Positions 1,691 to 53,375 are shown, counted from the first letter of the stretch. The stretch is 64,000 nucleotides of DNA from a virus (IMGVR_UViG_3300037507_002920:1-64000), one strand, 5' to 3'. Notes: generated by a model from the sequence alone, not told the origin. A program made the numbers and translations.

Positions 1691-2665
1691 TTAATAAGTC
1701 TGCGCGGTTTGATAAGTATTTCTTGTTGAAGTCGCACTAAATCCTGAGACTGTGTGTAATGTCGTCCAAGTTGTCCCGTTATTACTTCCAGCAATTGTCC
1801 ATGATTTTGGGTCTCTACTTTCTTCGTCATTAGCGGTGGCCCATCTGTATCCTGTGAACGATTTAGCGGAGGAAAATTGAAAAACGAAATTTGTAACATT
1901 ACCATTTGTAACAAAATTCAAATCTAGACCCTTTGTTGTTAAACTACCATCAACTAATTTTGATGGTTCTTCACCTGACGGATTTGAACCACTTGGGTTA
2001 GTAACAGTAACACCGGCCATACTTTGGTCAACACCACCTATTTGAAATACAAATTCAGACGCTTGAACACAATTCGCGTTAGGTGGTGTTGTTTTTGCTT
2101 CGGTTATTTGCCATCTATAATAAGTAAATGCCACTCTTGAAGGTGTTGGGGTTGGCGTTTTACTAGGTGTCACAGAACTAGTTGGTGTAACTGAAGGGGT
2201 TCGAGATGGTGTCACAGAACTAGTTGGTGTAACTGAAGGGGTTCGAGATGGTGTCACAGAACTAGTTGGTGTAACTGAAGGGGTTCGAGATGGTGTCACC
2301 GAAGGTGTAACAGAACTAGTTGGTGTTACAGAAGGTGTTAAGGATGGTGTAACAGACGGCGTAATTGATGTTGTTGGGGTTGGAGATGGTGCCGTTTCAA
2401 TTATTATTTTATAAAAATTTTCTTGAAAAATATAATCACCATTTTCTTGAAGTAAGAAATTTCCTGATTCATCCTCAACATAAAGGGTACATGTACTACC
2501 AAAAGCAGGAAAAAACAAAGTGTACGTTCCATAAAAATAAGGGGCTATATAGTCATATGGTAAAACTTGTGTACCCAAATTAATGGTCCCACCCGTGTCG
2601 GGATAATATGTTATTATTGCCGTTTGTCCATTATAATTTGTCGAAACTATTCTTAGTGTATCCAT
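1691..2665 (-). CDS. virion surface protein with Thr-Pro-Ser linker and C-terminal F5/8-type (discoidin-like) carbohydrate-binding domain
   Basis: TPS repeats; C-terminal [23 protein letters not shown] resembles the F5/8 type C motif. Confidence 0.6.
2140..2385 (-). repeat. coding tandem repeat, 42-bp unit ([14 protein letters not shown]), about 3 near-exact copies plus degenerate flanks
   Basis: ggtgtcacagaactagttggtgtaactgaaggggttcgagat recurs at 42-bp spacing. Confidence 0.9.
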
Positions 2666-2674
2666 AAAATTAAA

Positions 2675-16303: not shown

Positions 16304-16323
16304 TTTTTTTACTATTTATATAT

Positions 16324-16701
16324 ATGAAACGTAATAAAAATCTTATATCCTTAGATACCGATTCTGCTCTTGTTTTAATGCAAGAAATTTATAATGATAT
16401 TATGGAACAAAAAACCACCGCATCTATGATTACTAAAAAAATGTTAACATTTATGAAAGATTCAGAAGATATGAGTGTAATTGGTCCAGTAATTAAAGAG
16501 CAACAAAAAATATTAAATGATTGCACTGAAAAAAAAATATCATTAGTTAAATTACAAAACGCATTATTAAAACAAACTTATGGACCAAATTCTGTGAATT
16601 CAGGAGGTAAACTTCAATTAACAGAAGAAGATAGGGTAATCTTAGAGAAATTGATGAATGATGAAGATTCGGAATCTAAGGGTGACACCTATAAAGTCTA
16701 A
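16324..16701 (+). CDS. hypothetical coiled-coil protein
   Basis: 125-aa ORF; TATTTAT at 16313. Confidence 0.6.
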   Translation: MKRNKNLISLDTDSALVLMQEIYNDIMEQKTTASMITKKMLTFMKDSEDMSVIGPVIKEQQKILNDCTEKKISLVKLQNALLKQTYGPNSVNSGGKLQLTEEDRVILEKLMNDEDSESKGDTYKV

Positions 16702-28881: not shown

Positions 28882-29082
28882 ATGATAAAAATTAACGTAA
28901 ACAAAGAAAAGGGATTAGAATCCGCCCTAAAAAAATATAAATATAGGGTACAAAAAACAAGACAAAATGAACAATTAAGAGATAGGGAAGAGTTTGTAAA
29001 ACCTTCGGTCGAAAAAAGAGACCAAATGCTTAAAGCAATTTATAGACAAAAAATGAAGAGTCAAGAAGAAAAGTCAAACTAG
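28882..29082 (+). CDS. rpsU: ribosomal protein bS21 (Bacteroidota-like)
   Basis: LESALKKYK...LRDREEFVKPSVEKR...KAIY; 66 aa, basic. Confidence 0.9.
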   Translation: MIKINVNKEKGLESALKKYKYRVQKTRQNEQLRDREEFVKPSVEKRDQMLKAIYRQKMKSQEEKSN

Positions 29083-37376: not shown

Positions 37377-37452
37377 TTTTTTATAAATTAATAAATATTA
37401 TTATTATTTGTTTTATAATAAATACACACATATAGTAAAAAAATTGATTTTA

Positions 37453-38878: not shown

Positions 38879-39250
38879 TTAATTTAATGAAATAAATCGT
38901 TCAAAAGATTTTTTCTTATTTCTTGGAAGAATAATTTCTAAAACACCATTTTCAACTTTTCCTGAAATATCCTTATCGGATACATCTTCTGGAATTAAAT
39001 AGGTTTTTCTAAAGGAACCAACAAAAGAATAACCTTTGTTGTTTGATTCTTCCTTTTTATAAGAGATGGAAATATGTCCATCTTTAACCGAAATAGTCAA
39101 ATCATTTTTTGTTAATCCCGGTACAGAAAGATATATTTTATAATCATCATCTTTTGTGACGATTTTAGTTTGACCATCCTTTATGTAGGATGGGGTTTCA
39201 AAAAATGTATCTAATACATCTTTGAACGAGTCTCTATAAAGTGTTAACAT
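38879..39250 (-). CDS. small heat-shock protein (Hsp20)
   Basis: SVPGLTKNDL, GSFRKTYLIP, ENGVLEIILP. Confidence 0.9.
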   Translation of the reverse strand: MLTLYRDSFKDVLDTFFETPSYIKDGQTKIVTKDDDYKIYLSVPGLTKNDLTISVKDGHISISYKKEESNNKGYSFVGSFRKTYLIPEDVSDKDISGKVENGVLEIILPRNKKKSFERFISLN

Positions 39251-39400
39251 AGTATATTTTTTTTATTTGATAATTTATCATCAAATTATACGCCATTTAT
39301 TAAAAATTGACAAATTGTCATGTTTTTTTTAAATTTAAAGTTATTTTGTCATGTATTTGTTTTTTCTTATGAAATTTCGTATATTTGTAAAAAAAAGTAT

Positions 39401-41419
39401 ATGTCAGTTGATTTTTTCGAAGAAGGGAATAACTCAAATCCTAAAAAAACAAAAAAGGGTTCAACAACTCCAATCCTTGATAATTTTTCAAGAGATTTAA
39501 ATAAATTAGCAGAAGAGGGTAAAATTGACCCAGTAGTTGGTAGAGAAAAAGAGGTTAAAAGAATTGCACAAATTTTGGCTCGAAAGAAAAAAAATAACGC
39601 GATAATTGTTGGTGATGCTGGTGTTGGTAAATCCGCATTGATTGAGAAATTAGCACTACAAATAGTTAATGGTGATTGTCCAACTAATCTAATAGATAAA
39701 AAATTATTATCTTTAGATTTAACTTCATTGGTTGCCGGTACAAAATACAGAGGACAATTTGAAGAAAGAATTAAAGCAATTTTAAATGAATTACAAAACG
39801 AACCGAATGTAATATTGTTTATTGATGAAATGCACACAATCGTTGGCGCGGGTAATGCAAGTGGTTCGATGGATGTCGCTAATATATTAAAACCAGCGTT
39901 GGCTAGAGGAGAAATTCAGTGTATTGGTGCAACAACATTTGATGAATACAAAAAGAATATTGAAAAAGACGGAGCGTTAGTCAGAAGATTTCAAAAAATA
40001 ATCTTAAAAGAACCTTCACCAGACGAAACTGTTCAAATTTTAAAAAATTTAAGAAATTCATATCAAGATTTTCATAAAGTTTATTACAGTGATGAAGTTT
40101 TATCAACCATTGTCACGTTATCTTCAAAATACATAACAGATAGACAATTTCCTGATAAAGCAATTGATGTTTTAGATGAATTGGGTTCAGATAAAAAAAT
40201 CAACACTAAAATACCCGAATCAATTGAAAAATTGAAAAAAGAATCGGATGAATTAAGACTCAAAAAAATACAAGTTGTAAAAAATCAACAATATGAACAG
40301 GCGGCTAAATTAAGAGACGAAGAAAAGAAAATTTTAACAAAACTACAAGAAGAAAAAAATAAATGGTTAGATACACAAAAAGATAGTAAAATACCAATAT
40401 CTGTAGATGATGTTTACGAAATGGTTTCTCAAATTGTTGGTGTACCAATTTCCAAAGTAGATGTTGTTGAAACCGATAATCTTTTAAATTTAGAAGAAAA
40501 ATTAAAATCAAAAGTTATTGGACAAGACGAAGCGATTTCTATTATTTCAAAATCAATAAGAAGAAACAGGGTTGGGATTAAAGACACAAATAAACCAATT
40601 GGTTCGTTTATCTTTTTAGGTTCAACAGGTGTTGGTAAAACTTATTTAGCAAAATCAATTGCGGAAATATTATTTAACGACCCGAATAAAGTTATTCGAG
40701 TTGATATGAGTGAATATATGGAAAAACATAATGTTGCTAAATTGATAGGAGCACCACCGGGCTATGTTGGATATGATGAGGGTGGACAATTAACAGAAAA
40801 AATTAAAAATAACCCATTTTCTGTTGTTCTTTTTGACGAAATAGAAAAGGCACACAAAGATGTTTTTAATATTTTGTTACAAATCTTGGATGAAGGTCAC
40901 CTTACAGATTCTTTTGGAAGAAAAGTTAGTTTTTCAAATGCCATAATAATTATGACATCTAACATTGGGGCAAAAAAAGTATCTGATTTTGGGAAGGGCG
41001 TTGGTTTTGAAACTTCTTTTAGTGATAATCAGAACACAGAGATTAAAAAATCAATAGTTCAAAAATCATTAAAACAATATTTTAATCCTGAATTTTTAAA
41101 TAGGGTTGATGATATAATTAGTTTTAATCCTCTTGTAAAAGAAAGTATTGATAAAATTATTAACCTTGAATTAGAAAAACTCAAAAAGAGATTAGAACTA
41201 AAAAAATATAAAATTTCATTTGACGCTTCTATTACTAATAGAATATCTGAATTAAATACACAAGAAGAATTTGGTGCAAGACCAGTAAAAAGAATCATAC
41301 AAAACTTGTGTGAAGATTTTTTAAGTGAAATGATATTGAGAGGTGAAATTTTAGAAAATCAAAACATTTTATTGAAATTTAAAGATGGTGAAATAAAAAT
41401 AACAAAAAAGAGAGTATAA
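39401..41419 (+). CDS. clpC: ClpC-type AAA+ unfoldase lacking the N-terminal Clp-repeat domain
   Basis: two Walker A motifs (GDAGVGKS, GSTGVGKT), GAPPGYVGY, UVR-like middle domain (QQYEQAAKLRD) and a VGF loop; start at ATG 39401 after a TATATTTG motif. Confidence 0.88.
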   Translation: MSVDFFEEGNNSNPKKTKKGSTTPILDNFSRDLNKLAEEGKIDPVVGREKEVKRIAQILARKKKNNAIIVGDAGVGKSALIEKLALQIVNGDCPTNLIDKKLLSLDLTSLVAGTKYRGQFEERIKAILNELQNEPNVILFIDEMHTIVGAGNASGSMDVANILKPALARGEIQCIGATTFDEYKKNIEKDGALVRRFQKIILKEPSPDETVQILKNLRNSYQDFHKVYYSDEVLSTIVTLSSKYITDRQFPDKAIDVLDELGSDKKINTKIPESIEKLKKESDELRLKKIQVVKNQQYEQAAKLRDEEKKILTKLQEEKNKWLDTQKDSKIPISVDDVYEMVSQIVGVPISKVDVVETDNLLNLEEKLKSKVIGQDEAISIISKSIRRNRVGIKDTNKPIGSFIFLGSTGVGKTYLAKSIAEILFNDPNKVIRVDMSEYMEKHNVAKLIGAPPGYVGYDEGGQLTEKIKNNPFSVVLFDEIEKAHKDVFNILLQILDEGHLTDSFGRKVSFSNAIIIMTSNIGAKKVSDFGKGVGFETSFSDNQNTEIKKSIVQKSLKQYFNPEFLNRVDDIISFNPLVKESIDKIINLELEKLKKRLELKKYKISFDASITNRISELNTQEEFGARPVKRIIQNLCEDFLSEMILRGEILENQNILLKFKDGEIKITKKRV

Positions 41420-41460
41420 ATACCTTTACTTTTTGTAAAAGTATATATATTTATATATCA

Positions 41461-41553
41461 AATAGGAAATCTTTGCCGATTCCTCTCGTTTTAGTTAGTG
41501 GTGTTGAAACCACAAATGACCGCAACCCCCAACTCACCGTTGGGGGTTTTTTT
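41461..41553 (+). ncRNA. candidate small RNA 'A' (about 90 nt)
   Basis: TATTTAT at 41448; hairpins AGGAAAT-CTTTGCCG-ATTCCT and GTGGT-GTTGAA-ACCAC; ends in terminator CCCCCAAC-TCACC-GTTGGGGG-T7. Confidence 0.5.
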
Positions 41554-41595
41554 ATTGTGTTTTTTTTTCGTATATTTAAATTAAAAGACAAGATA

Positions 41596-41943
41596 ATGTA
41601 TCAAGATAAACCAAAAGACACTATTATAAAAAAATTGGTAATTAATGAGTCATACAAAGACTTTCCCGAATTTTATCGAAAAAATAAAGAAGAGATATAT
41701 AAAAACATTGTTCTGTCATTTAAAAGTATAAATAGAAAAGACAAACAAAACGTTGTTTTATATTTACACGCAAAAATTAATGGGCTACAATGGGAAACAA
41801 ATTTAAAATTTAATAAAAAAGAATGTTTTGTGTTGGTTAGAGACATATTACCCTTTTTTGAGGAAAAAGAAGAATATGAATATTGTGGTGTAATTGTAAA
41901 TTTATATAATAAATTAAATTCAAATCTTCAATTAGAAGAATGA
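41596..41943 (+). CDS. hypothetical protein with C-terminal UVR-like motif
   Basis: ATG 41596 after CGTATATTTA; FFEEKEEYEYCGVI resembles the UVR E-[DE]-YE motif. Confidence 0.55.
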   Translation: MYQDKPKDTIIKKLVINESYKDFPEFYRKNKEEIYKNIVLSFKSINRKDKQNVVLYLHAKINGLQWETNLKFNKKECFVLVRDILPFFEEKEEYEYCGVIVNLYNKLNSNLQLEE

Positions 41944-43676
41944 GATAAATCACAATCTCCTTTAATTATAAATTTTATGTTTAAAATAACATTATTTACA
42001 CCAAAATTAATTATAAAAACTTGATTTGATGGTATTGAATTAAAATTATTGAGATTAATTAAATTAAAATCATTTTCATTATACCATAAAGTTTCATTGA
42101 AATACATTAACCCTGAAATTCTTGCCGCCAATAAATAAGAATCGACAATTGTTATTTTTCCATCGTTATTAATATCTCCGGCTTTCATTTTTTTTCCATT
42201 ATTTAAAACTAATCCAATAGGTAATTGATTTGGTGTGTTTTCATTTTTTGATTCATTAAACAATAAATTGAAATCATTATTCGTTAATGAGTCAAAAAAT
42301 GAAGGAACTATTTTATAGGTTGAATTGTGTTTTGTTGGGTTTAAAACATATGAACCGTCAGCACTAACATTTATAGTTTGTAATAGTGTTTCCGTATTAT
42401 TCTCAACAAGATAAAATTTTAATTGTGGTCTGTTTAAAACATTATTGGGTATTGATATTGTTCCGCTTATTGTTTCAGAAATTGAAATGGTGGCAATTAC
42501 TTCAGTTCTTGTTGAACTAACACAACCCGTTGAAATATTTCTTGATTGAGCATAATATTTTGTTGTTTGTGAAATAAATGGTGTTGTAAATGTCGTATTC
42601 CCAACTAATATAGGGTTACCTCCCGTTAAATTTGAATACCAATCAACAGTTTGACCAACACCGACTATTGCGGATATGGTAACCGTACCACTACCCGTTC
42701 TACTACCATTTACACCGATTGGTTTTGATGGCTCTTGCAATGATGTACATGTAATTTGATGGGTCACAAAACCCGTATAAAAATCCGTAAAATTTTGTTC
42801 CGAAGGGTCTGACCATGTTCCAAATTCAACAACATATCCACTTATTGAACTAGGAAAAGAACTCGCCGGTGGACCGAAATCGTTCCAACAATTCCCACCA
42901 CCCCATTTTGTAACAGCATAATCTTCTCCACTTCCCCAATTATTTGGTTCACCACCACACCAGTTATTATATTTACCAGCAACATTTCCACCTGAATTTG
43001 ATGTCTTTATTATTGTACCATTTTCAGGACCAGCATCTATTACCCACACCCCTTCTTGTGATACGTCATTTAAAGCAAATAAGATGTTATTTCCGGGTAC
43101 ATTGGATTGTATAAAATTTTGTTCATCTTGTGATGTTATTGTTAAAAGATATCCTGTTTGTCCTTTAAATGTTTGTTGTGTCGATAATGTTTTAATATTG
43201 TTATATATCGAATGACTTGTCCCCGTATTTCCAGATGGCCAAGACATTGGTCTATAAAAGTGTCCATTTGTTGGTAAATAATAATACCCTGTTGGATTAA
43301 TTGTGGCACTTACTGCAATGTAAACGTTACCAGGTGATGAACCGGTATTTATTTTTAATGAACTTAATGTTGTGTTGATATTTGATTGGAGCCCAGTAAA
43401 ACTAATTCTCGTAAAATTTAACCAAGAAGAATACCCCGTACTTAAAGATACTCCCGTTGTTGATGTTAATGATAAAGTGGTACCTATTGGTGGATTTACT
43501 AAACCAATAGTGACAAGTAATGTTGAGGTTGAATTAAAGTTGGAAATTGAAAATCCACCAGCATTTTGATTTGATGTGTTTTGTGAAAAAGTTGTTGCAG
43601 ATGGTGATGTTATGTTTTGTGAAAAAACAAGGATTGGTGATAAAATTAAAATACATAAAAATATAATTTTTTTCAT
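41928..43676 (-). CDS. secreted protein with C-type lectin-like, Ig-like and dockerin-like domains
   Basis: signal peptide; NNWCGGEPNN..GEDYAV...WND; TVDWY..TFTTP..TKYYAQ..GCVS.TR; GDINNDGKITIVD. Confidence 0.7.
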   Translation of the reverse strand: MKKIIFLCILILSPILVFSQNITSPSATTFSQNTSNQNAGGFSISNFNSTSTLLVTIGLVNPPIGTTLSLTSTTGVSLSTGYSSWLNFTRISFTGLQSNINTTLSSLKINTGSSPGNVYIAVSATINPTGYYYLPTNGHFYRPMSWPSGNTGTSHSIYNNIKTLSTQQTFKGQTGYLLTITSQDEQNFIQSNVPGNNILFALNDVSQEGVWVIDAGPENGTIIKTSNSGGNVAGKYNNWCGGEPNNWGSGEDYAVTKWGGGNCWNDFGPPASSFPSSISGYVVEFGTWSDPSEQNFTDFYTGFVTHQITCTSLQEPSKPIGVNGSRTGSGTVTISAIVGVGQTVDWYSNLTGGNPILVGNTTFTTPFISQTTKYYAQSRNISTGCVSSTRTEVIATISISETISGTISIPNNVLNRPQLKFYLVENNTETLLQTINVSADGSYVLNPTKHNSTYKIVPSFFDSLTNNDFNLLFNESKNENTPNQLPIGLVLNNGKKMKAGDINNDGKITIVDSYLLAARISGLMYFNETLWYNENDFNLINLNNFNSIPSNQVFIINFGVNNVILNIKFIIKGDCDLSHSSN

Positions 43677-45091
43677 AAATTAACTTTACTACCTATCAGA
43701 AAAAAAGACAAAATAGGAAAGTTTGGTTTTGTACTCATATTTGCCTTATAATTCATGTTTAGTTTAAATCTTTTAGATATTTGATAATCTAACCCACTAC
43801 CAATAAAACCGCTTACGTATCTGTCTGTAATTGTTATTTTATCTTTTGTTGAATAAACCAAAGGAGTTGACATTACATATATTTCGGGTGACATCATAAA
43901 CCTTTTGTTGATTTGAAATGGTCTTGTGTAGAAAAAGGTGGCGGATGGTGAATAATATCCCGTCTTTTCTTTAGTAATGATAGAAGCTGCGGCACTTAAA
44001 TTTATACCAGTCACACCAAATTTTCCCGCATTTAATATACCACTGTACCCCAAAAACAATAAATAATTACCATATGTATAAACACCCGTCAAATTTAAAT
44101 TATGTATAAATTTTAAATTTTGACTTTTATCAAAATGTATTTTACTGTATTTTCCTGAAATTGCAAATTGTTTTAAGTTTAACCAAACCATGCTTGTTAC
44201 ACCATAATTTGATAAACCAGTCATTGAAGACCTACTTGTTCCAATATTTATTATTCCCGTAAACTTACCATCTAAATTTTGTGCGGACGTTAAATCTGAA
44301 GAAACAATAATTGGGTTACTATTTGAACCACCACCTCTGTTACTACTTCTCTTTCCCGAACCACCATCGTTTGATGAATTATTATTTTTTTCAGTTTGAC
44401 TATCTAAATTTATTGTTGTTGTCGCAACAACTTCTTCTCCGTTCGTTTCAGAATTATTTGAATTATTTACAGTCGATTTAGTCGATGGATTTCTTGTTTG
44501 TGTTGAATTATTTGGTTTTCCATTCGTTCCACCACCATTTGAAGTTCCATTTCCTTGACCATTATTTGTTCCTCCAGATGACCCACCATTTGATTGATTT
44601 GGTGGGGGTCCTCCATTTCCTTGATTTGAAGAACCATCTCCATTATTCCCTGTAGTATTATTACTTCCATTGTTTTGTGTATTATTACTTTCTTCGTCAT
44701 TCTCTGTTGAATTACCACCAGATTGGTTAGACGACATTATTGAACCAACTACCGATTGTACAACACCTCCAATTATTTGGCTAGTTATTTGATTTTGGGT
44801 TACTTGAGATTGTTGTTGTGAACATGGACTTATTTGTCTGTATTCACCATAAACTTGATTTATCCAATTTGAAAATGTTCCATTTAATAAATCGTTACTA
44901 TCAAAATAACCTATTTTATTTAAAAAAATTATTGTTGTTTTACCACCTTGTAACGGGACACTAAAAATTGTAACTTCTTTTGTACATGGGTCAATAAAAG
45001 TGTATGTTGTTATTTGTGCTGTTGATATTTTAGAAAATATTATAAATAATAATATTAAAGATACTTTTATAATATTTTTTAATATCATCAC
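43673..45091 (-). CDS. secreted protein with G/N/S-rich linker and probable C-terminal outer-membrane beta-barrel
   Basis: signal peptide; alternating amphipathic strands ending FFLIGSKVNL. Confidence 0.55.
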   Translation of the reverse strand: MMILKNIIKVSLILLFIIFSKISTAQITTYTFIDPCTKEVTIFSVPLQGGKTTIIFLNKIGYFDSNDLLNGTFSNWINQVYGEYRQISPCSQQQSQVTQNQITSQIIGGVVQSVVGSIMSSNQSGGNSTENDEESNNTQNNGSNNTTGNNGDGSSNQGNGGPPPNQSNGGSSGGTNNGQGNGTSNGGGTNGKPNNSTQTRNPSTKSTVNNSNNSETNGEEVVATTTINLDSQTEKNNNSSNDGGSGKRSSNRGGGSNSNPIIVSSDLTSAQNLDGKFTGIINIGTSRSSMTGLSNYGVTSMVWLNLKQFAISGKYSKIHFDKSQNLKFIHNLNLTGVYTYGNYLLFLGYSGILNAGKFGVTGINLSAAASIITKEKTGYYSPSATFFYTRPFQINKRFMMSPEIYVMSTPLVYSTKDKITITDRYVSGFIGSGLDYQISKRFKLNMNYKANMSTKPNFPILSFFLIGSKVNL

Positions 45092-45129
45092 TCATTTTCT
45101 TTAAAAGAAGATATTAGAATCTGTCTTTG

Positions 45130-45894
45130 TTAATTAGGGAAAACACCCTTTTTTATCATTCTCAATAGTATTCTACAACATGCAATGTCTAATGCTTTTT
45201 TAGTGCTTATACCAATAGTTGATTGGTTAAATTTAACATCACTTAAATTATCGTCGTTTATTAAACTTAATTCTCTTACCGTTTTAGCTTCACCCAAACC
45301 ACTTGCAGCGATTATTTGGCCTGTTTCTGCATCGGTAAATCTAACCTGTAAACCTAATCTTGTAACCACAGTATTTTTTACGCCATCAGACAAGTTAACA
45401 GTCTCATCTTCACTTATTGAAAAATCATAAACTTCAATACTAACAAAATAGTGTGCTAAACGAATTTTACCCCTACCATCTAAAGTATCTGCACTTATTC
45501 CAGCTTGAGACGCTTGGAATTGTTTAACCATTCTGTTTTTTATTTCGGTTTTATCTTCGGTAAAAGTAAATCTATTTAGATTTTCCAAGTACTCCAATGT
45601 GATATTTGCAACACCCAAACCAACTTTTTTTTCTTTTAATTCTGGGTATTGTTCATAAACTTCATCATTTATACCTATTTTCAAAATTTGAATAGGAATT
45701 TGTGGTCCCTCATAATCCATTAATGAATCAATATTTACACTTGTTTCAAATGACGCTTTGTATTGCTCTGTTTGTGTTTTACCAATAACTTGTGCAGATG
45801 CAACATCAAACATTAATATCGTCATTATGATAACCCAAAATAGAAATACTAAAATTGGTAGTAAATATTTTTTCATTTTGATTATGTTATTCAT
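45130..45894 (-). CDS. CsgG/HfaB-like envelope protein
   Basis: LGVANITLEYLENLNRFTFTE and LGLQVRFTDAETGQIIAASGLGEA follow the CsgG pattern. Confidence 0.55.
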   Translation of the reverse strand: MNNIIKMKKYLLPILVFLFWVIIMTILMFDVASAQVIGKTQTEQYKASFETSVNIDSLMDYEGPQIPIQILKIGINDEVYEQYPELKEKKVGLGVANITLEYLENLNRFTFTEDKTEIKNRMVKQFQASQAGISADTLDGRGKIRLAHYFVSIEVYDFSISEDETVNLSDGVKNTVVTRLGLQVRFTDAETGQIIAASGLGEAKTVRELSLINDDNLSDVKFNQSTIGISTKKALDIACCRILLRMIKKGVFPN

Positions 45895-46463
45895 TCTTCG
45901 TCTTTTATTTTACCACATTTTAAACACTCTAAATCACCGTCATTGTCTGAATCACCCCAAACGTGTTCACATTGTCTGTGTGTGAAATATTCATCAATGA
46001 TACCGTCATTATCGAAATCTAAACCATCCATAATACCATCACCATCCTCATCGATTTCTACACCAACTTTTTGTTCATTATTTGATTTCGTTTCAGTACT
46101 TTCTAAATCAAGAATGGGTTTAGATGGTGTTGATGGTTTTGGTGAATCTGGTATATCCGATGTATTTGATAACGAAGTACCATCCTCTTCATCCATTTTT
46201 TGAACTAACATTTTATCCTTATCAGTATCACTGAACCAATAGTCAATGATTTTACCGTAGGAACCAATGAAAGCACCAAGAAGTAAAAGAAGAAGTTCTT
46301 TCCATTCTCCACTTATGGCACTTTGTTCAAATATGGCCAAAAATATTCCACCCATAATTAACATGAACCCACCAAGAACTATGGCGGTTATAAACCACCT
46401 TCTTTTCATCATTGAATTTAGAAGTTCTCTAAATCCAGTGTTTTGAGAATTATCATTTACCAT
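45891..46463 (-). CDS. two-TM membrane protein with DxDxDG calcium-binding repeats
   Basis: two hydrophobic helices; DEDGDG, DFDNDG, DSDNDG; C-terminal CxxC. Confidence 0.6.
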   Translation of the reverse strand: MVNDNSQNTGFRELLNSMMKRRWFITAIVLGGFMLIMGGIFLAIFEQSAISGEWKELLLLLLGAFIGSYGKIIDYWFSDTDKDKMLVQKMDEEDGTSLSNTSDIPDSPKPSTPSKPILDLESTETKSNNEQKVGVEIDEDGDGIMDGLDFDNDGIIDEYFTHRQCEHVWGDSDNDGDLECLKCGKIKDEE

Positions 46464-46804
46464 GCTGGTGGGGTTTCTTTAAATTCATCACCTTCTTTTT
46501 TCTTCGGAGCAGGTGCGGGTTTATTGTTATTTTCTGGTTGCTTTTCAATAACTCTTTCTTTTATGATAGTTGTTCCACCACCCGAGTTATTTTGTTGTTG
46601 AGTGTTATTATTTTCTAAATTAAGATTAATAACTGGTGCGGGTGCAACCTGTTCTGTTTTAGTTTCTTCTTTATCGTCCCCTCCACCACCAAATAGAGTT
46701 GTGGATACCCACACACCACCACCTGTGACAATGGTTGCTAATGTACCTACGATGGTTTTTTTCAAACCACCCCAAGAGCCGTCGTTTTCTGTTTCTTCAC
46801 TCAT
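46457..46804 (-). CDS. single-TM membrane protein
   Basis: N-terminal hydrophobic helix, low-complexity tail. Confidence 0.55.
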   Translation of the reverse strand: MSEETENDGSWGGLKKTIVGTLATIVTGGGVWVSTTLFGGGGDDKEETKTEQVAPAPVINLNLENNNTQQQNNSGGGTTIIKERVIEKQPENNNKPAPAPKKKEGDEFKETPPAW

Positions 46805-46808
46805 GATT

Positions 46809-48716
46809 TTATACTTTTATAAATTGTTTAGTTAATTGTTTATTATAATTATTCAGAATTAGAAAATAATTTCCATTAGAAGCGTATGTCATATCAATTT
46901 GTTTATATGCGACCGTTTCCATTGGATTTGTTATAACTTGTCCTACGTTTTGAATCAACTTACCTCTGATATCATAAATAGATGCGTCCATAAACATATT
47001 TTGATTTGGAAATTTAACTTCTAATTCAAACCAACCTGTTGTTGGGTTTGGTCTTATCGATGCTGTTATTTCTTCAACAACTTGATGGGTCTGTGGAATT
47101 GACCTATAACTTAAAACTGCGATTTGGTTTTGTAACTCAATATTTAAGTGGTCACCATTTTCGTCCGAGGCATCCATCAATTCTCTAATTTGAATATTTG
47201 TTACGATATCCTCACCACCAATTGGTGAAAATTTAAGTTTAAAAGGTGTCGATTGACCAATTAAACCGTCTCTTTGTTGATTATTCATTCCGCCAAACCT
47301 AACAGTACCTGATAGTTCATCGTGTGTCACATATTGTAACCATGGGCCACCATTAAAATTGGACACGATTTCTTCAAATTTAACTTTTGTTCTGTCATAC
47401 TTCATTTCAAATTGTAGTCCATAGTTATTATCCCCATTTGTGTTTATGTTAAATGGAACATATAACGATGGATTACCAACAGAATATGTGTTTGGTATGT
47501 TAATATCTAATTTACCTTTATAAATTGCTCTGGCAACTAAATTACCATTACTATCCCACACTCTTGAAGAGAATGTTCTATCAACATCACCTTGTATAAA
47601 GTATTTAATATTCACAACCAAATTTTCGTTACCAACACTATCCGTGATAAAGTTTGTTGTGTTTAAAAAATTAGGCCAAATAGACCATTGGTTTTGACCT
47701 AAAACTAAGTTATCATAATCAGATGCTTTAAACACTCTAATCATGTTCGTAGTATCTATTTTTCTTAAACCACTAACATTTGCGTATATCAAATACGGGT
47801 CACCACCATCTAAATTACCATTTCCATTTAAATCAGCAATCAAATAAGATAAACCATTTTTCAAATAAAATCTTGAATACGTTTGATTAACGTCTGTTCT
47901 TGTAAATTCATCATATGTTTTTACGGCATCTGATATCGTTACCGCATAATCTCTGAAAGTTTCCATACTATCAGATGGGAATCTTAAAAGTAATTTATAT
48001 CTAGTGTTTCTATCAACATTATTTAAACTATAGTTACCTGAAGTATCACATAAAGAAGAAGACACAAACTCACCAGTGTTTAATTTAGTACATATAACCA
48101 TTGGTCTTCTACCATCTAATTTCATAGTCGGTGGAAGTTCAACATTACCACTTATAACCAAGTTACCACCCAAATCTAACTTCATACTCTTGTAAGTCAA
48201 ATTCGCTACGTTATCACCAATACTTGTACCGTCTTTTTTAAACAATCTAACCCAGTTCACGTGTACACTATCTTCCACGAAATTGGATTGAACATTGTTA
48301 ATTAAAAATTTATTGTGAATGATGTATATTGCTCCTGAAATTTGAGAACCACTTGATAATACTAAAAAGTTTCTAGCGACGGTCCAATTTGTGTCATTAA
48401 CATACCCATATAAACCCGTTGCTGGACTATATGAACCATACTTAAAGTTATCATATTCGTTATATGATATTGCCGGTGTCATGGTATTAACACTATTATC
48501 CACAGTTGTTGAAACGTGTGTAAATAAATCCTTCTTAAATTGGAAATCGATTTGAAACGACCTTACATCTTTTGTTGGGTCGGGGATGTATTGAAATATT
48601 ACATCTAACGTATCGTTTCTTCTTATTGTAGATAATTGTTGAAAATTACCTACGCTCTGTGAATAACCTACATAGGTTATCATCATTAACACAAATGTTA
48701 AAATTAGTTTTTTCAT
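46809..48716 (-). CDS. T9SS type-A cargo protein with cohesin-like and dockerin-like domains
   Basis: signal peptide; ADLNGNGNLDGGD; GLQFEMKYD...VRFGG; C-terminal IRPNPTTG...IYDIRGKLI...GNYFL...KQFIKV is a T9SS CTD pattern. Confidence 0.78.
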   Translation of the reverse strand: MKKLILTFVLMMITYVGYSQSVGNFQQLSTIRRNDTLDVIFQYIPDPTKDVRSFQIDFQFKKDLFTHVSTTVDNSVNTMTPAISYNEYDNFKYGSYSPATGLYGYVNDTNWTVARNFLVLSSGSQISGAIYIIHNKFLINNVQSNFVEDSVHVNWVRLFKKDGTSIGDNVANLTYKSMKLDLGGNLVISGNVELPPTMKLDGRRPMVICTKLNTGEFVSSSLCDTSGNYSLNNVDRNTRYKLLLRFPSDSMETFRDYAVTISDAVKTYDEFTRTDVNQTYSRFYLKNGLSYLIADLNGNGNLDGGDPYLIYANVSGLRKIDTTNMIRVFKASDYDNLVLGQNQWSIWPNFLNTTNFITDSVGNENLVVNIKYFIQGDVDRTFSSRVWDSNGNLVARAIYKGKLDINIPNTYSVGNPSLYVPFNINTNGDNNYGLQFEMKYDRTKVKFEEIVSNFNGGPWLQYVTHDELSGTVRFGGMNNQQRDGLIGQSTPFKLKFSPIGGEDIVTNIQIRELMDASDENGDHLNIELQNQIAVLSYRSIPQTHQVVEEITASIRPNPTTGWFELEVKFPNQNMFMDASIYDIRGKLIQNVGQVITNPMETVAYKQIDMTYASNGNYFLILNNYNKQLTKQFIKV

Positions 48717-49207
48717 AGTAATAAATTATTTAATAGTGTTTGAGTTGTTTTTTTTATTGCTGAACTGGCAGATTGTTGATTAAATTTACCACCTTCATCA
48801 ATAATGATTGTTGAAGTTGATATTTCTGTCGATTTCCCTTCCGAAAATTCTTGTTTTATTTTTTTATCTCCTTTGTATAGAATCCCTTTCATTCTAATTA
48901 CCGTCGTTGTTTTATCTTGATGGAAAACACTAATACCGGAGTTAACCTTAATAATATCAAAAAATATTAGTTCAATTTTTATTTTATATTCTGACGTTGA
49001 TTTGTCTCCAACCAAATAAAATTTATCCTGTTCGTTTATAATTTCTTCAGCAATATTTTTAACTCCAAATGCCAAATTTTTATTTTCAGTAAATGGACCT
49101 ATTTTTATGTTGTTGATTACCGTATCAACAACAAGACTTTGGGCGTTAAGATTATTTAACCCCAATAAAAGAAAAAATAAAACGGTAAGTATATATGGTT
49201 TTTTCAT
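48713..49207 (-). CDS. secreted protein, CsgG-like
   Basis: signal peptide; FGVKNIAEE and FNQQSASSAIKK parallel LGVANITLE and FNQSTIGISTKK of 45130..45894. Confidence 0.45.
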   Translation of the reverse strand: MKKPYILTVLFFLLLGLNNLNAQSLVVDTVINNIKIGPFTENKNLAFGVKNIAEEIINEQDKFYLVGDKSTSEYKIKIELIFFDIIKVNSGISVFHQDKTTTVIRMKGILYKGDKKIKQEFSEGKSTEISTSTIIIDEGGKFNQQSASSAIKKTTQTLLNNLLL

Positions 49208-49209
49208 TT

Positions 49210-49464
49210 TTATTCAGATACATTGTCTTCAAATTTCCTTTTATGTGAAAACTTATCCAAAGTATCGGCACCCATTCCTATCGCGGTTATAATCATTACT
49301 GCGTTTACCAAATCCTCAGATGGTTTAATATCACCATGAGAAAATGAATTAGCTAACATAGTACCACATAGAAAAGTTGAACCTAAAAATGCGATTACGG
49401 GTTTTATAGAAGTAGAACCTCTCTCGTCTTTAAATAAGTCTACAATCCAATTTTTGAAAGTCAT
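49210..49464 (-). CDS. small two-TM membrane protein (holin-like)
   Basis: 84 aa, two hydrophobic segments, charged C-terminus; TATTTAT motif at about 49507. Confidence 0.5.
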   Translation of the reverse strand: MTFKNWIVDLFKDERGSTSIKPVIAFLGSTFLCGTMLANSFSHGDIKPSEDLVNAVMIITAIGMGADTLDKFSHKRKFEDNVSE

Positions 49465-49606
49465 AGTTATAATTTATGTTTGGTTTATTTATCATGTTTG
49501 GTTAACAATAAATATCCCGGCAATTTTATTTTTCATATATATTTAAAAAATTATATATGACATTTTTTTGTTTTTTAGTTTTTATTATGTATATTTGTCA
49601 CCTAAT

Positions 49607-49679
49607 GACTCTGTAGCTCAGTTGGTAGAGCAATACACTTTTAATGTATGGGTCGGCAGTTCGAACCTGCCCAGGGTCA
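49607..49679 (+). tRNA. tRNA-Lys(UUU)
   Basis: GACTCTG/CAGGGTC acceptor stem, ATACA-CTTTTAA-TGTAT anticodon arm, GTTCGAAC T-loop; no encoded CCA. Confidence 0.95.
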
Positions 49680-49697
49680 CATTAATTATGAAACAAT

Positions 49698-49771
49698 GCT
49701 CCTGTCGTCTAACTGGTTAGGACATCCCCCTTTCACGGGGAAGCTTGTGGGTTCGAGTCCCATCGGGAGTA
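49698..49771 (+). tRNA. tRNA-Glu(UUC)
   Basis: GCTCCTG/CGGGAGT acceptor stem, TCCCC-CTTTCAC-GGGGA anticodon arm, GTTCGAGT T-loop. Confidence 0.92.
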
Positions 49772-49790
49772 CTAAAAATATTTTTAAAAA

Positions 49791-50033
49791 ATGATACAAA
49801 AAATTTTAGACATCTATCCTGATGAGGATATTTTAATGGCCGACGGTTTCGACGATGCAATAATAGGTATCGAAACAAAAACAATGAGATTAATCTATTC
49901 TGTTAGTAAGTGTATTGATGTACTGACAAAACAAGGTATGAGTGAAATGGATGCCGTTGAATACTTTGAATTTAATGTTTCTGGTTCATATGTAGGAGAA
50001 AAAACACCGATATGGTGTGAAGACTATATTTAA
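49791..50033 (+). CDS. hypothetical phage protein
   Basis: 80-aa ORF (ADGFDDAIIG...EYFEFNV.GSYVGEKTP). Confidence 0.65.
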   Translation: MIQKILDIYPDEDILMADGFDDAIIGIETKTMRLIYSVSKCIDVLTKQGMSEMDAVEYFEFNVSGSYVGEKTPIWCEDYI

Positions 50034-50077
50034 TATTTGAAATCATTAGTTTTTTGTGTATCTTTATATAAAAAAAT

Positions 50078-50162
50078 GCCATCGTGTCGTAATTGGTAGC
50101 CGATACAGACTTAAACTCTGTTGGGAGTAATTCCCGTACCGGTTCGAGTCCGGTCGGTGGTA
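50078..50162 (+). tRNA. tRNA-Leu(UAA)
   Basis: GCCATCG/CGGTGGT acceptor stem, ACAGA-CTTAAAC-TCTGT anticodon arm, long variable arm GGGAGTAATTCCC. Confidence 0.93.
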
Positions 50163-50169
50163 CAAAGTT

Positions 50170-50241
50170 GGGCCCATAGTTAAAGGGATATAACCACAGA
50201 TTTCTAATCTGTTATTCCTAGTTCGAGTCTAGGTGGGCCTA
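50170..50241 (+). tRNA. tRNA-Arg(UCU)
   Basis: GGGCCCA/TGGGCCT acceptor stem, ACAGA-TTTCTAA-TCTGT anticodon arm, CTAG-TTCGAGT-CTAG T-arm. Confidence 0.93.
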
Positions 50242-50261
50242 CTATATTTATATTATAAGTT

Positions 50262-50723
50262 ATGAAAAATTTTAAAACACTACACGGAATACCGATAGAT
50301 AATATAATAGAATATATAAGAAATTTTTTATTAGAAAAACCTGACACCGAAATATTAATTGGGTCAGATTCTCAATCATTTGGTAATTTTAAAACGGTGT
50401 ACGGTACTGTTATCGCTTTATACATGAAAGGTAAAGGTGCCCATATTTTGTGCACAAAAGAAACCACACCATTTGAAAAAGAGATGTCAGTTAGATTAAT
50501 TAATGAAGTTTGGAAAGCCATAGAAGTTGCTGAGTTTTTAAGAAATAACGATTTACCTAAAGTAACGTGGATTGATATCGATTTAAACCCAGACCCAAAG
50601 TTTAGGTCAAACAAGGTATTAAGACAGGCTGTTGGTTTGGTTCAAGGTATGGGATATAAGGTTAGATACAAACACAATGGGGCTATGACTACCTACGGAG
50701 CCAATCATTTAGTGAGACTTTAA
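50262..50723 (+). CDS. RNase H-like YkuK (DUF458) family protein
   Basis: ILIGSDSQ, RLINEVWKAIEVA and IDIDLN motifs. Confidence 0.75.
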   Translation: MKNFKTLHGIPIDNIIEYIRNFLLEKPDTEILIGSDSQSFGNFKTVYGTVIALYMKGKGAHILCTKETTPFEKEMSVRLINEVWKAIEVAEFLRNNDLPKVTWIDIDLNPDPKFRSNKVLRQAVGLVQGMGYKVRYKHNGAMTTYGANHLVRL

Positions 50724-50754
50724 AAAAAAAAATAAAAAAAAATTTTAAAAATGC

Positions 50755-50844
50755 TTGACTTGTATTGATTTCTTTCGTATCTTTGTAAAAGATTTGATAC
50801 TTATGGTTTAGACCATGATTTGAAAAATCAATCGTTCTTTGAAA
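50755..50844 (+). promoter_or_regulatory. Bacteroidota sigma-A-type promoter followed by a boxA-like element
   Basis: TATCTTTG at 50778-50785 (TAnnTTTG -7 box) with TTG upstream; GTTCTTTGAAA at 50834-50844. Confidence 0.6.
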
Positions 50845-50850
50845 ATTTAA

Positions 50851-51650
50851 AAATAGGGCCGTCTATGGTCCTTAAATAAACCACGAAAGTGGTATAAAGT
50901 GACTCACTCGGTTAGATGAGTTGCGGCTTTCGAAAGAGAGCTCGAGTAGACAAACGAGATATCGTTTAACCTTGAGTAACGAGGGTGACACTGTAGTGAA
51001 AGTGGTAAAACGAATGGGGGATGCGGGTCCTTCATTTGAGGTGGGAACACCAATAAGAATAACTCGTAGGATTTATGTGAGAAACATAGTCATCCAACTA
51101 TGTAATCGCGTGATTCAATATGATGGGAATCTTAAAACCGAAAGGTATGACTTTGTACAGGTGGTGCTGTTATTGTCCTTGATTTGAACCTACCAAGGTT
51201 CTTTTCTTGAAGGAGTCCAAAAATATGGAAATCGGGAGATTTCAGAGGGTAGTTTAGTATCGTGTTGTTCAAAAGATGACATGGCTGGTCGATGAGCCAC
51301 TACCTTCATAATCCGCAAACCAAAAAACTTGTTATTTTGATTAACAAAATCTAATAAAAAGGAAAAGTGCTCATCAGTCGTCGGAAACAGGTGACTACTT
51401 AGTAATGAAACGTTCATTGCCGTAGAGGGTCCCAAGCCCGATACGATTTTTAAGAAAGTCCTCTAACCCCGCAAGGGTTAATTGGGAAGGCATTCTCGAG
51501 GAGTGATTAGTATTGAGAGAGTATCCGATGACTCAAGGATTGGTTAATCTAATTGGCCGTCACTGGTTGGTACAACTCAAAAGGTTGTGGATATAAAGGG
51601 AAACAATAATCCTTTTAAAGTCAACTAATAAAACATGTAATCTCAGTGTT
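50851..51650 (+). ncRNA. large structured ncRNA, about 800 nt, GOLLD-like
   Basis: GC content above flanks, no credible ORF, GNRA-capped stems (CCAC-GAAA-GTGG, ACC-GAAA-GGT, CCC-GCAA-GGG), beside tRNAs, ends before a T-run; ends approximate and family not confirmed. Confidence 0.65.
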
Positions 51651-51715
51651 TTTTTTTTCTTGATTTAAAATCAAGTGGTGGAGCAAAGAGTCGAAAGGCC
51701 CTCAACAATTAATTA

Positions 51716-51744
51716 AGGTTAGAAAATTCTAACCTTTTTTTTTG
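51716..51744 (+). terminator. intrinsic terminator
   Basis: AAGGTTAGAA-AA-TTCTAACCTT followed by a T tract. Confidence 0.7.
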
Positions 51745-51817
51745 CTATTTTTTTTGAAATATTGAAAACTTTTCGTATATTTATCACAAATAACAATTTT
51801 TTGTTCTTTGAAATTTT

Positions 51818-52235
51818 GGGGATGAAAGGAATCGACACACGTGTAAATGTTAAATGGGCATGCGGTCAAACATCATCTATGACCATAATCAATGATGGTA
51901 CAAATTAAGCGGCAACGTTTATAACAACATGGAAATTGCGGGTATCCTCGCTTCTTCCAAGGTAGCAGTAGCCTAGGCGAATCTATCAATGGGTCGGGAG
52001 ACAAATAACCTAGAAACAGAAGTCTTTAAGGTGTGATACAACCTAAAGTGTCAAGGGTCTCGTTCAGAGTACTACCTGTAAATCCACGAAAGTGGTAAAA
52101 GTGAATTCGACACAGTTATTGGTAACAATGTCAAAATAGGAACCATTTATTTGTCAGTTGTGAACTAATTGAATAAGCATGTAGTCCATTTATGATTTCT
52201 CGGGGTGGACGGCGGTTCAATTCCGCCCATCTCCA
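51818..52235 (+). ncRNA. ssrA: tmRNA; predicted tag (A)GNVYNNMEIAGILASSKVAVA* at 51911-51976
   Basis: 5' GGGGATGAAAGGAATCGAC; 3' GGCGGTTCAATTCCGCCCATCTCCA with Ala-type G3.U pair; TAAGC|GGC resume context. Confidence 0.9.
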
Positions 52236-52271
52236 CTGGCTAACTTTTTGTACTTTCCGATAAGTACAAAG

Positions 52272-52298
52272 AAACCCACTCACAAGGTGGGTTTTTTT
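52272..52298 (+). terminator. intrinsic terminator after tmRNA
   Basis: AAACCCAC-TCACAAG-GTGGGTTTTTTT; preceded by the hairpin TTTGTACTT-TCCGAT-AAGTACAAA. Confidence 0.8.
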
Positions 52299-52310
52299 AT
52301 TTTAAGTACA

Positions 52311-52425
52311 CAATATCTCATAAACGAACAAAGGGGTCAAATTGACCCCTTTGCCGAGATATTGAACCCCTCCTTTCGTTTTATTAGTTTATTATCTCAT
52401 GGTGACCAAACCATTTGACTCTAAA
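52311..52425 (-). ncRNA. candidate small RNA 'B' containing an extended Shine-Dalgarno sequence
   Basis: minus-strand TATTTAT at 52427-52433; GAAAGGAGGGGTTC; hairpin CAAAGGGGTCAA-T-TTGACCCCTTTG; shares blocks with 41461-41520. Confidence 0.5.
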
Positions 52426-52448
52426 CATAAATATTTCGTATTTTAATT

Positions 52449-53375
52449 TTAAGCAATAAATTTTGCTAAATATTTTAACATAAATAAATTCATTGCACCA
52501 CCTAACATTCCTCCACCATCATCGGTAGATGGTTGTTGACCCCCACCAAAATCTTGTGGGGTTGAATTTTGGGCAATAAAATTACTTGTTGTAGGGTCTT
52601 CAGCTAATTTATTTAAGTTATTCTCATCTTTCATCCAATTATCAAGTGAAGCGATGTTAGGTATTCCAAATTTACCCAATAAATTGTTGGCAATTAAAAA
52701 TTTAGAAAACGCCAATCTTCTATCTCTTCTTGCTAAAACATTTTGCCACCACCTTGATAATGCGTTTGATGGTAACATTCCATTTTTAGCAAAATACTTT
52801 GATAGTCTTTGTCCTTGAAAATATCCTTTAAGACCACCCGCAAATGATTTACCCGCAGATAACGATTTAACACCCGCCTCTAAACCTTTACCAACTTGAC
52901 CGGTATATTTTACCGATATATTTTTTAATGTGTCTAAACCACCTTGTAAACCTCTTCCCCATCCTTTGTTTACATTTGATATTTTTGACACGGTTTGAGT
53001 TACTCTTGGGTCAGAAGCGTATTGTGCTAAATCTTTAAATTTATTGGCCAATTGCGGATTTTTAGCGAGGTATTCACCCAACTTAGGTCCACCTGTTGTT
53101 AATAATTTTGGTGCCCCTTTAAATGCGAATAAAATGGGTTTAACAAGTAAATCACCAACTGTGGGGATTAATGCAACCAACGTCAAAGCTGCTTTAAGAC
53201 GTTCACCCCTCATAATATATCTTATTATTGAAATGATATCCGCAATTTCACCAATCACAGGTATGAATCCCGCGGCTAAAAGTACGTTTTCAGTATCTAA
53301 TATTCCCTCATTTAAGTGAGAATCGTTTTTCTTACTTTTAGTTATTTCTAATATTTGTTTTTTCGTAAGTTCCAT
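52449..53375 (-). CDS. protein with pre-toxin TG-like motif and G/A-rich amphipathic helices
   Basis: AAGFIPVIGEIADII...ALTLVALIPTVGD; probable start MELTKKQ at 53375. Confidence 0.55.
   Translation of the reverse strand: MELTKKQILEITKSKKNDSHLNEGILDTENVLLAAGFIPVIGEIADIISIIRYIMRGERLKAALTLVALIPTVGDLLVKPILFAFKGAPKLLTTGGPKLGEYLAKNPQLANKFKDLAQYASDPRVTQTVSKISNVNKGWGRGLQGGLDTLKNISVKYTGQVGKGLEAGVKSLSAGKSFAGGLKGYFQGQRLSKYFAKNGMLPSNALSRWWQNVLARRDRRLAFSKFLIANNLLGKFGIPNIASLDNWMKDENNLNKLAEDPTTSNFIAQNSTPQDFGGGQQPSTDDGGGMLGGAMNLFMLKYLAKFIA

Follow-up and report, generated by a model that had tools for sequence, protein, structure and literature searches.

What are two short elements that lie about 11 kb apart in a viral genome, carry the same sequence blocks in the same order and look like units of opposite strands? 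The question arises in the first 64 kb (hereafter the window) of the IMG/VR virus record IMGVR_UViG_3300037507_002920. This record has 107,216 bp, is rated only 32% complete by CheckV and is therefore that of a jumbo phage. The initial annotation of the window proposed that element A (41471-41520) and element B (52349-52419) specify two small RNAs that base-pair in trans. Comparison with related viral records indicates that RNA A and RNA B are real: they are conserved phage small RNAs, complementary to each other, and as a pair previously undescribed. The Shine-Dalgarno (SD) motif noted earlier in B proved to be the main story: it is a 13-15-nt complement of the 3' tail of 16S rRNA.

The annotation had not recognised the family, and neither did we find one. 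A search of the whole window against Rfam release 15 at the gathering threshold returned only GOLLD, transfer-messenger RNA (tmRNA) and four tRNAs. When 401-nt stretches were searched at E <= 10, the best scores were those of rnk_pseudo for A (25.6, threshold 55) and Trp_leader for B (27.7, threshold 41), both terminator-like. Comparison of A and B with GenBank phage records by blastn gave no match, and a literature search found no description of either RNA. A and B are two new structured RNA families, with 15 and 65 distinct sequences, respectively.

Two structured RNAs on opposite strands

RNA A is about 95 nt long (41458-41553, plus strand; 5' end predicted from the upstream box, 3' end from the U-tract of the terminator). 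Pattern scans of viral contigs found A-type elements in 28 related viral records, and further variants were recovered with model R2, which gives 136 bits for A on the window. The minimum free energy of A is -30.0 kcal/mol (z = -3.7). Its variants share hairpin 1 (AGGAnAUC and GAUnUCCU around the loop UUUGCC), a linker beginning with CUCGUUUU, hairpin 2 and an intrinsic terminator. In the alignment of 15 distinct variants, 96.4% of cells are paired and six pairs are changed on both sides; none of 500 shuffles reached the observed score, and slid controls dropped to 34-51% paired.

In the window, hairpin 1 (41464-41484) consists of AGGAAATC and GATTCCT around the loop TTTGCC, and the loop plus its flanks is block 1, CTTTGCCGA (41471-41479). 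The stem is compensated in a second clade (AGGTT...AACCT), and block 1 is near-invariant, the variants found being CTTTGTCGA, TTTTGTCGA and TTTTTACCGA. The linker, block 2 with its extension (TCCTCTCGTTTTAGTTAGT, 41481-41499), is anti-SD-like and complementary to AAAACGAAAGGA of B; it would be the main pairing face. Hairpin 2 (41498-41513; GTGGT and ACCAC around GTTGAA) is not conserved as a complement of B. Its inner pair is compensated within A from U-A to A-U and also to G-C (GTGGT/ACCAC, GTGGA/TCCAC, GTGGG/CCCAC). The terminator (41524-41553) has a 10-bp stem at 41524-41548 followed by a U-tract, as had been claimed; its stem sequence differs from lineage to lineage, with four pairs changed on both sides.

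RNA A comes after the end of a ClpB-like ATPase gene in most relatives. It is 100% identical in close relatives where that gene end differs, and in one contig (L027) the sequence upstream of A is unlike the gene end seen in the other contigs, which suggests that A is a unit of its own there. Other roles for its sequence were considered and dropped. Coding by A or B was rejected, as frames differ between copies. A host-type -7 promoter box at TATCTTTG is present in some variants only, and hairpin 1 covaries. GTTTTAG and GTTGAAAC presumably resemble a CRISPR repeat, and a CRISPR-repeat mimic was abandoned as a reading. A loose A pattern gave at least 120 matches over genome contigs; among the matches listed none has hairpin 2, so these are chance matches, a result that is not a demonstration that A is absent from cellular genomes.

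RNA B, about 105 nt long (52320-52424, minus strand), is likewise conserved and structured, with its own box and terminator. Model R1 gives 123 bits for B on the window, and its minimum free energy is -31.8 kcal/mol (z = -4.5). Employing BLAST and models R1 and R3, we found B in 8 of the 28 A-holding records; a metagenome scan yielded 34 further distinct sequences and a scan independent of blocks 1 and 2 about 30 more, giving 65 distinct sequences in total. The alignment of 32 distinct rows has 95.6% of its cells paired and shows changes on both sides in 11 pairs; the observed score was reached by 0 of 500 shuffles. Matches of B patterns in L252, L272 (GC-rich), L352 and L396 were discarded as chance, and weak matches of R1, R2 and R3 (15-28 bits) were terminators rather than further copies.

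Read on the minus strand, B is ordered as the box ATATTTAT, a 5' hairpin, a variable linker, AAACGAAAGGAGG and AUCUCGGCAA, the last of which enters the terminator hairpin. AAACGAAAGGAGG and AUCUCGGCAA are each invariant in 35 of 35 aligned variants. So is the loop GGUUUGGUCRCC (52399-52414) of the 5' hairpin (52394-52421), the stem of which covaries freely (seven pairs changed on both sides in helices 1 and 2). The loop showed no conserved complementarity to A and no long match in the two 16S loci checked. Block 2 forms the 5' half of the extended SD sequence, AAAACGAAAGGAGGGGUUC (52364-52383), which is complementary to the 16S 3' tail. The terminator hairpin (52329-52353), also located as previously described, has an 11-bp stem with many G.U pairs and four pairs changed on both sides. 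It overlaps block 1, which reads UCGGCAAAG in B (plus-strand coordinates 52349-52357).

The claim that the two RNAs come from opposite strands stands. For A, the terminator stem covaries as read on the plus strand. The helices of B contain 144 G.U cells against 8 A.C cells when read on the minus strand, and 95.6% of cells are paired on the minus strand against 83.3% on the plus strand. This wobble asymmetry settles, as far as comparative evidence can, that B is a minus-strand RNA. A reading of B as a plus-strand mimic of the 16S tail was rejected on the strand evidence; the RNA would carry an SD sequence rather than an anti-SD mimic.

The TATTTAT motifs of the initial annotation are real and form part of the 8-mer ATATTTAT, which starts at 41447 on the plus strand and at 52434 on the minus strand. 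The box of A (41447-41454) occurs in 13 of the 15 aligned variants, the two others (L037 and L027) lacking it in the register of the alignment, and that of B (52427-52434) is invariant in 35 of 35. The genome holds 48 copies of ATATTTAT, 22 of which lie no more than 70 nt upstream of a same-strand open reading frame (ORF) that starts with ATG and has at least 80 codons for amino acids; for the host-type box TAnnTTTG, 9 of 178 copies are similarly placed. ATATTTAT stands 6-51 nt (mostly 12-32 nt) ahead of many ATG starts, for example at 20458, 21854 and 50244 on the plus strand and at 37398 and 33461 on the minus strand, and a copy at 51777 precedes tmRNA. It looks like the phage's own gene-proximal promoter, and we predict that it serves A and B as such. 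In two variants (L243 and L244), a putative 3' end of an upstream terminator (AAAGAAACCCTCG, cut by the edge of the extract) lies before the box of B.

Both A and B thus have what is expected of genes for trans-acting small RNAs (sRNAs): a box, a terminator with a covarying stem, conservation in relatives and no conserved ORF, with transcript ends that are predicted. In the window and in nine related records with compared positions, they are convergent on opposite strands and 9.5-27 kb apart. Logan contigs of RNA runs, which carry no strand, give weak hints of expression. In run X14, only 5 of 30 bins had depth: that of A, and four that contain GOLLD and tmRNA. The hint for A is this bin depth, no contig piece over A being among those listed; parts without cover and the small word shares of the runs are given no weight.

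Complementarity of the two RNAs

Four blocks had been described as common to A and B. All are present in the window, and only blocks 1 and 2 are conserved in relatives as complementarity. Block 1 has two exact matches in the window, at 41471 and 52349, and block 2, TCCTYTCGTTTTA, also has two, at 41481 and 52371. With up to two mismatches, TCCTYTCGTTTTA has 15 matches (6.0 expected); the longer pattern TCCTYTCGTTTTA(N)TTAGT occurs in the whole record twice on the forward strand, with none on the reverse strand and none in the control. Chance is far from explaining blocks 1 and 2, since many related phage contigs carry the two RNA families and both blocks vary little or not at all within them. 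The 18 nt of block 2 alone also match unrelated phage contigs, and in five of seven such stretches the reverse complement, a generic look-alike of a ribosome-binding site, lies just upstream of an ATG; seven of nine block-2 stretches were dropped as chance. Because its reverse complement resembles a ribosome-binding site, block 2 on its own is unconvincing; the convincing part, in our comparison, is the combination of blocks and its conservation.

Block 3 (the TGGTG...AAACCA hairpin) and block 4 (TGAC) are not kept as A/B complementarity in relatives. As the stem TGGT/ACCA reads alike on both strands, block 3 has no power to tell orientation. The closing pair thought to covary between A and B is no evidence of pairing either, because hairpin 2 of A compensates internally and the loop of B is invariant. 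The block pair is not among the 20 largest repeat families listed for the window, since it is gapped, and a plain MAFFT alignment of A with B put the blocks in the wrong register.

Each conserved block of A has its complement in an invariant part of B, AAACGAAAGGAGG or AUCUCGGCAA. When all 107 kb of the genome were scanned for duplex partners of A, RNA B ranked first once A's own antisense was set aside (-47.0 kcal/mol; mean -20.7, standard deviation 5.2); the second-best partner (16317-16416, minus strand) was rejected as the antisense of a plus-strand coding sequence. As the initial annotation would predict, relatives hold both RNAs (16 genomes), and cognate duplexes are better than non-cognate ones: the cognate mean is -27.2 kcal/mol, against -23.9 +/- 0.8 kcal/mol for permuted partners, and 0 of 20,000 permutations were as good. 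With eight lineage representatives, the preference for the cognate partner has p = 5e-5.

Individual substitutions point in the same direction. At position 6 of block 1, the combination in A and B is C/C in nine genomes, T/T in five and T/C (a U.G pair) in two, and C/T, which would be a C.A mismatch, in none. An A-to-G change at position 2 of block 1 in B still leaves a U.G pair. In block 2, an extra T and a change in the length of the T-run occur jointly in A and its cognate B, and a C/U polymorphism of A tracks the cognate B. Beyond CGUUUU, cognate A and B have lineage-specific extensions in common (TTAGT, TAGTCT, T7C and ATAAGT). Conserved complementarity with compensatory or wobble-compatible change, as expected of an sRNA and its anti-sRNA, is thus found in 16 genomes that represent few independent lineages. 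In full-length cofolding of the 16 pairs, the mean gain was -11.6 kcal/mol against -6.5 kcal/mol with shuffled partners, and each of the 16 lay below its own shuffled mean. On this comparative evidence, pairing of A and B in trans appears well supported.

The 16S tail, host rpsU and the possible readings

In Bacteroidia, the 3' tail of 16S rRNA is normally locked away by the ribosomal proteins bS21, bS18 and bS6. With the anti-SD sequence hidden under bS21, host bS21 itself is made from one messenger with an extraordinarily long SD sequence. We fetched two real 16S ends, ...GGAACACCTCCTTTCT and ...GGAATACCTCCTTTT (in longer form ...GGCTGGAACACCTCCTTTCT and ...GGCTGGAATACCTCCTTTT); among 301 Bacteroidota genomes, the 125 with a match have tails of the types GGATCACC, GGAACACC and GGAATACC. 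Of the 65 distinct B sequences, 33 have a longest contiguous Watson-Crick run of 13-15 nt with one of the two real tails and 30 have one of 9-12 nt; the other 2 stay under 9 nt. At least nine consecutive pairs, as in an extended SD of the rpsU type, are therefore found in 63 of 65 B sequences when measured against two tails that may not be those of the host. The plus strand of B of the G003 type contains TGGAATACCTCCTTT, 15 contiguous nt of the second tail type; no other long match to the rRNA loci was found for A or B. Both GAAUACC and GAACACC forms occur in the B family, as in natural tails, and the predicted energies of tail:B duplexes are -17 to -25 kcal/mol.

These values resemble those of the host leader. 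PMC9976891 gives 9-13 bp and -14 to -21 kcal/mol for the SD of rpsU, the gene for bS21, as the only strong SD in Flavobacteriales genomes, and in PMC13000453 a 13-bp helix of SD and anti-SD is reported as incompatible, for steric reasons, with bS21 being bound. Like the extended SD leader treated there, B has 9-15 contiguous pairs in an energy range as for rpsU, and its lineage is one in which SDs are otherwise avoided: counting both strands, the 107-kb record has 13 copies of AGGAGG, and a single GAAAGGAGG. The rpsU leader of one genome (G265) has 14 nt, ACGAAAGGAGGTAT, in common with B. Unlike the rpsU leader, B is phage-encoded, is followed by no ORF, ends in a terminator and has an extra conserved 5' hairpin and a dedicated antisense partner.

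Downstream of the SD of B we found no canonical start codon and no conserved frame, and there is a terminator instead; an AUC lies 6-9 nt after GGAGG, and reading frames are not conserved. Whereas in an rpsU leader the SD stands 5-10 nt upstream of the start of the bS21 ORF, B has no such ORF; accordingly it is to be seen as a mimic or decoy rather than as an rpsU leader. Neither does it resemble the messenger of a type I toxin-antitoxin system, as B contains no conserved ORF and a mini-frame MVWSP in the 5' hairpin is lost in one genome (G012).

RNA A, which would cover the 5' half of the SD of B as the initial annotation had stated, could also face the host messenger. We recovered 26 rpsU leaders, many with extended SDs. 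For the linker of A, mean pairing energies are -8.7 to -9.7 kcal/mol over 31 rpsU leaders and -5.6 to -6.1 kcal/mol over 67 control leaders, a difference mostly due to the SD itself. The phage's own bS21 leader is A-rich (an A-run) and has no SD, and neither A nor B would therefore touch it.

Taken together, we somewhat favour the reading in which A and B are separately transcribed, trans-pairing small RNAs, B being a decoy with an SD of the rpsU type and A masking B, with the host bS21 loop as their point of action. In this scheme, jumbo phages of freshwater Bacteroidota that encode bS21 would transcribe A from the plus strand and B from the minus strand, each from its ATATTTAT box to its own intrinsic terminator. 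The loop CUUUGCCGA of hairpin 1 in A would pair with UCGGCAAAG in B, and the linker UCCUYUCGUUUU plus a few lineage-specific bases would pair with AAAACGAAAGGA. B is a copy, devoid of an ORF, of an extended SD of the rpsU type and can match as many as 15 nt of the 16S 3' tail; as such it may serve as a decoy that attracts 30S subunits whose tail is free, or as a wedge that works against bS21 in its bound state. The anti-SD-like A would mask the SD on B and might mask the same site on the host rpsU messenger. The pair would then set the degree to which the autoregulatory loop of host bS21 is disabled while the SD-less bS21 gene of the phage is expressed. Antitermination by A was rejected, as another terminator follows B both in the window and in G003.

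Several observations weigh against this scheme. The preference for cognate partners is absent or weak when five and then seven lineages are compared (5x5 and 7x7 tests), and the signal in 16 genomes rests largely on two clades, with few independent events. For single pairs, 0-8 of 40 shuffles match the full-length cofold gain; the pair of the window gains only -9.3 kcal/mol over its monomers, and 26 of 100 shuffled B sequences do as well. Block 1 of B lies in the terminator stem, and pairing would need both that stem and hairpin 1 of A to open. Co-variation of A and B could stem from a shared third partner, the host rpsU leader, without direct pairing. The window's own B (UGAACCCCUCCUUUC) has nine contiguous pairs with the two tails tested. 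In Bacteroidota genomes, exact matches of the 13-mer AAACGARAGGAGG are, by eye, about as frequent as those of its reversed control, and only 1 of 30 inspected matches is an rpsU leader. In RNA run X12, a 185-nt contig without mismatch covers 52345-52519, that is, B and the 3' end of the upstream ORF; since it bridges the box of B, B may in part be a 3' untranslated region or a product of read-through.

The distribution of the two RNAs belongs with these points. A was found without B in G002 (92% complete), G001, G005 and G008, as judged by models R1 and R3 and a motif search. Because A exists without B, a two-piece RNA, the second possibility of the initial annotation, is excluded in its obligate form, and the first, a pair of an RNA and an anti-RNA, holds to the extent that the predicted pairing in trans does. 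B accompanies A in 9 of the 17 B-holding records of one search, including G349 (93% complete), and in 4 of 5 in another; it was seen without A in the other 8 of 17 and in G037, all of them fragments. In 43 metagenome loci that hold B, each of at most 14 kb, there was no A.

Among the alternatives, the one that survives best, unlikely as we consider it, makes A the effector: an antisense RNA that masks the SD of host rpsU and shuts off bS21, with B as a sponge or target mimic that buffers or times A and has no action on the ribosome. The wider occurrence of A, including the 92%-complete genome without B, fits this arrangement. Block 2 of A, CCUCUCGUUUU, is a perfect complement of AAAACGAGAGG in one rpsU leader (L443; 14 bp, -19.6 to -19.8 kcal/mol), rpsU leaders vary between CGAGAGGA and CGAAAGGA in the same way as A varies between C and U, and the stretch common to B and the G265 leader is what a target mimic would contain. 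A pure sponge, however, would not need the complementarity to the 16S tail (GGAGGUAUUCC) that B conserves past the part covered by A. Moreover, nothing that corresponds to block 1 was found in the 31 rpsU leaders examined, and ACGA(R)AGGAGG was read in only 4 of 26 leaders, several of them from genomes that look related.

It is improbable, in our estimate, that A and B do not pair functionally at all, each acting alone on the translation apparatus or host rpsU, with the complementarity a by-product of tracking the same host sequences. Complementarity in block 2 would indeed be automatic if A is antisense to an SD of the rpsU type and B copies one; the net cofold gains are modest, and A and B are not always together. 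Nevertheless, the 9 nt of block 1 resemble neither the 16S tail nor the rpsU leaders seen, but both RNAs conserve them, with changes that run C-G, U.G, U-A and never C.A, and the extensions after CGUUUU are common to cognate A and B. That the copies are a duplicated DNA site for protein binding or recombination is very improbable: they do have the same order and orientation on the plus DNA strand, and the transcript ends are predicted ones, but each copy is part of a unit that has its own promoter box, hairpins that covary and a terminator, the two units being on opposite strands, the wobble pairs of B are strand-asymmetric, substitutions between the copies are wobble-compatible, and the bin of A is among the few with depth in RNA run X14.

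The favoured reading of A and B as a masking RNA and its decoy may be compared with known systems. In sponge or anti-sRNA pairs, a trans-encoded RNA mimics the target site of a messenger and titrates a base-pairing sRNA; AgvB and AsxR are prophage-encoded anti-sRNAs of this kind in enterohaemorrhagic Escherichia coli. B would likewise be a phage-borne target-site mimic directed against a base-pairing sRNA, but here both RNAs come from the same lytic-type jumbo phage, and the mimicked SD also matches rRNA. We know of no Hfq-type system described in the host phylum for pairing of an sRNA with an anti-sRNA. As in CopA/CopT, RNAI/RNAII and Sok/hok, pairing is proposed to start at a hairpin loop (UUUGCC of A) and to proceed to a longer duplex that occludes the SD; those RNAs are cis-encoded and fully complementary, whereas A and B are encoded far apart and complementary in two blocks only. 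C-rich or UCCC-motif sRNAs of Firmicutes, such as RNAIII and RsaE, also pair with SDs through a single-stranded anti-SD-like motif. Unlike in Firmicutes, almost no messenger in Bacteroidia has an SD, and the target set of A would therefore be about one host gene, rpsU, plus B.

Genomic setting and meaning for bS21-encoding phages

Proteins encoded in the window suggest a Bacteroidota host: a Por_Secre_tail domain of the type IX secretion system (T9SS), a CHU_C-type Ig domain, a ClpB/ClpC-like AAA+ ATPase and Hsp20. The last two are encoded within 38879-41419, upstream of RNA A: Hsp20 on the minus strand and the two-ring ATPase of 699 aa on the plus strand, directly before A. Between A and the tRNAs there is a run of minus-strand genes (41928-48716); one encodes a CHU_C Ig-like protein and another a product that bears a T9SS C-terminal sorting domain, both being host-envelope-type proteins that the phage encodes. 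A host-type TAnnTTTG box (TATATTTG, 49593-49600) stands ahead of the tRNA cluster.

The RNAs that Rfam finds in the window all lie between A and B. The GOLLD RNA occupies 50871-51649 on the plus strand (Rfam match 51245-51649, 314 bits). Metatranscriptome contigs cover 50871-51645, and the full RNA is therefore about 780 nt long; with a contig depth of hundreds to thousands, far over every other bin, it is very abundant in three RNA runs. The tmRNA (51818-52238, plus strand; ARAGORN and Rfam) has a 21-residue tag ending in AVA and is covered by RNA contigs. Searches of Pfam and PHROG returned no family for the ORF of 322 aa that lies upstream of B; its one relative found (L055) has no B downstream. 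Near the other end of the window, a coding region (2100-4700) contains long GGTGTT-rich arrays that repeat with periods of 6, 12, 18 and 42 nt, which suggests a highly repetitive, fibre-like protein.

The phage gene for bS21 (66 aa; 28882-29082, plus strand) is opposite to its minus-strand neighbour. Freshwater Bacteroidetes phages that encode bS21 are described in PMC9723584, and the phage of the window fits this group; the terms 'tmRNA', 'small RNA' and 'non-coding' have no occurrence in that paper. PMC9976891 speculates that phages may encode products that aid bS21 exchange.

A stronger form of the reading is a tentative and rather doubtful possibility: A and B would be a two-RNA device against the anti-SD lock of Bacteroidia, in which B anneals to the 16S 3' tail and pries host bS21 off ribosomes or soaks up bS21-free 30S subunits, while A, a partial mimic of the 16S tail, masks the rpsU SD, tunes B and clears the way for phage bS21. 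If this is true, B would stop the host from re-making bS21, and the pair would be the first RNA-based viral take-over of ribosome composition and the product that the bS21 field speculated phages might encode.

Many aquatic phages carry their own bS21, for reasons that to our knowledge are unknown. The bS21-carrying phages studied here possess a non-coding RNA that is conserved and whose long SD is of the kind found in the host bS21 messenger, together with a conserved antisense partner. Two RNAs of about 100 nt make it testable by which route phage bS21 gets onto host ribosomes and whether a phage breaks the bS21 feedback of its host. Whatever the reading, the pair is a rare case of a virus that encodes a small RNA plus its complementary partner.

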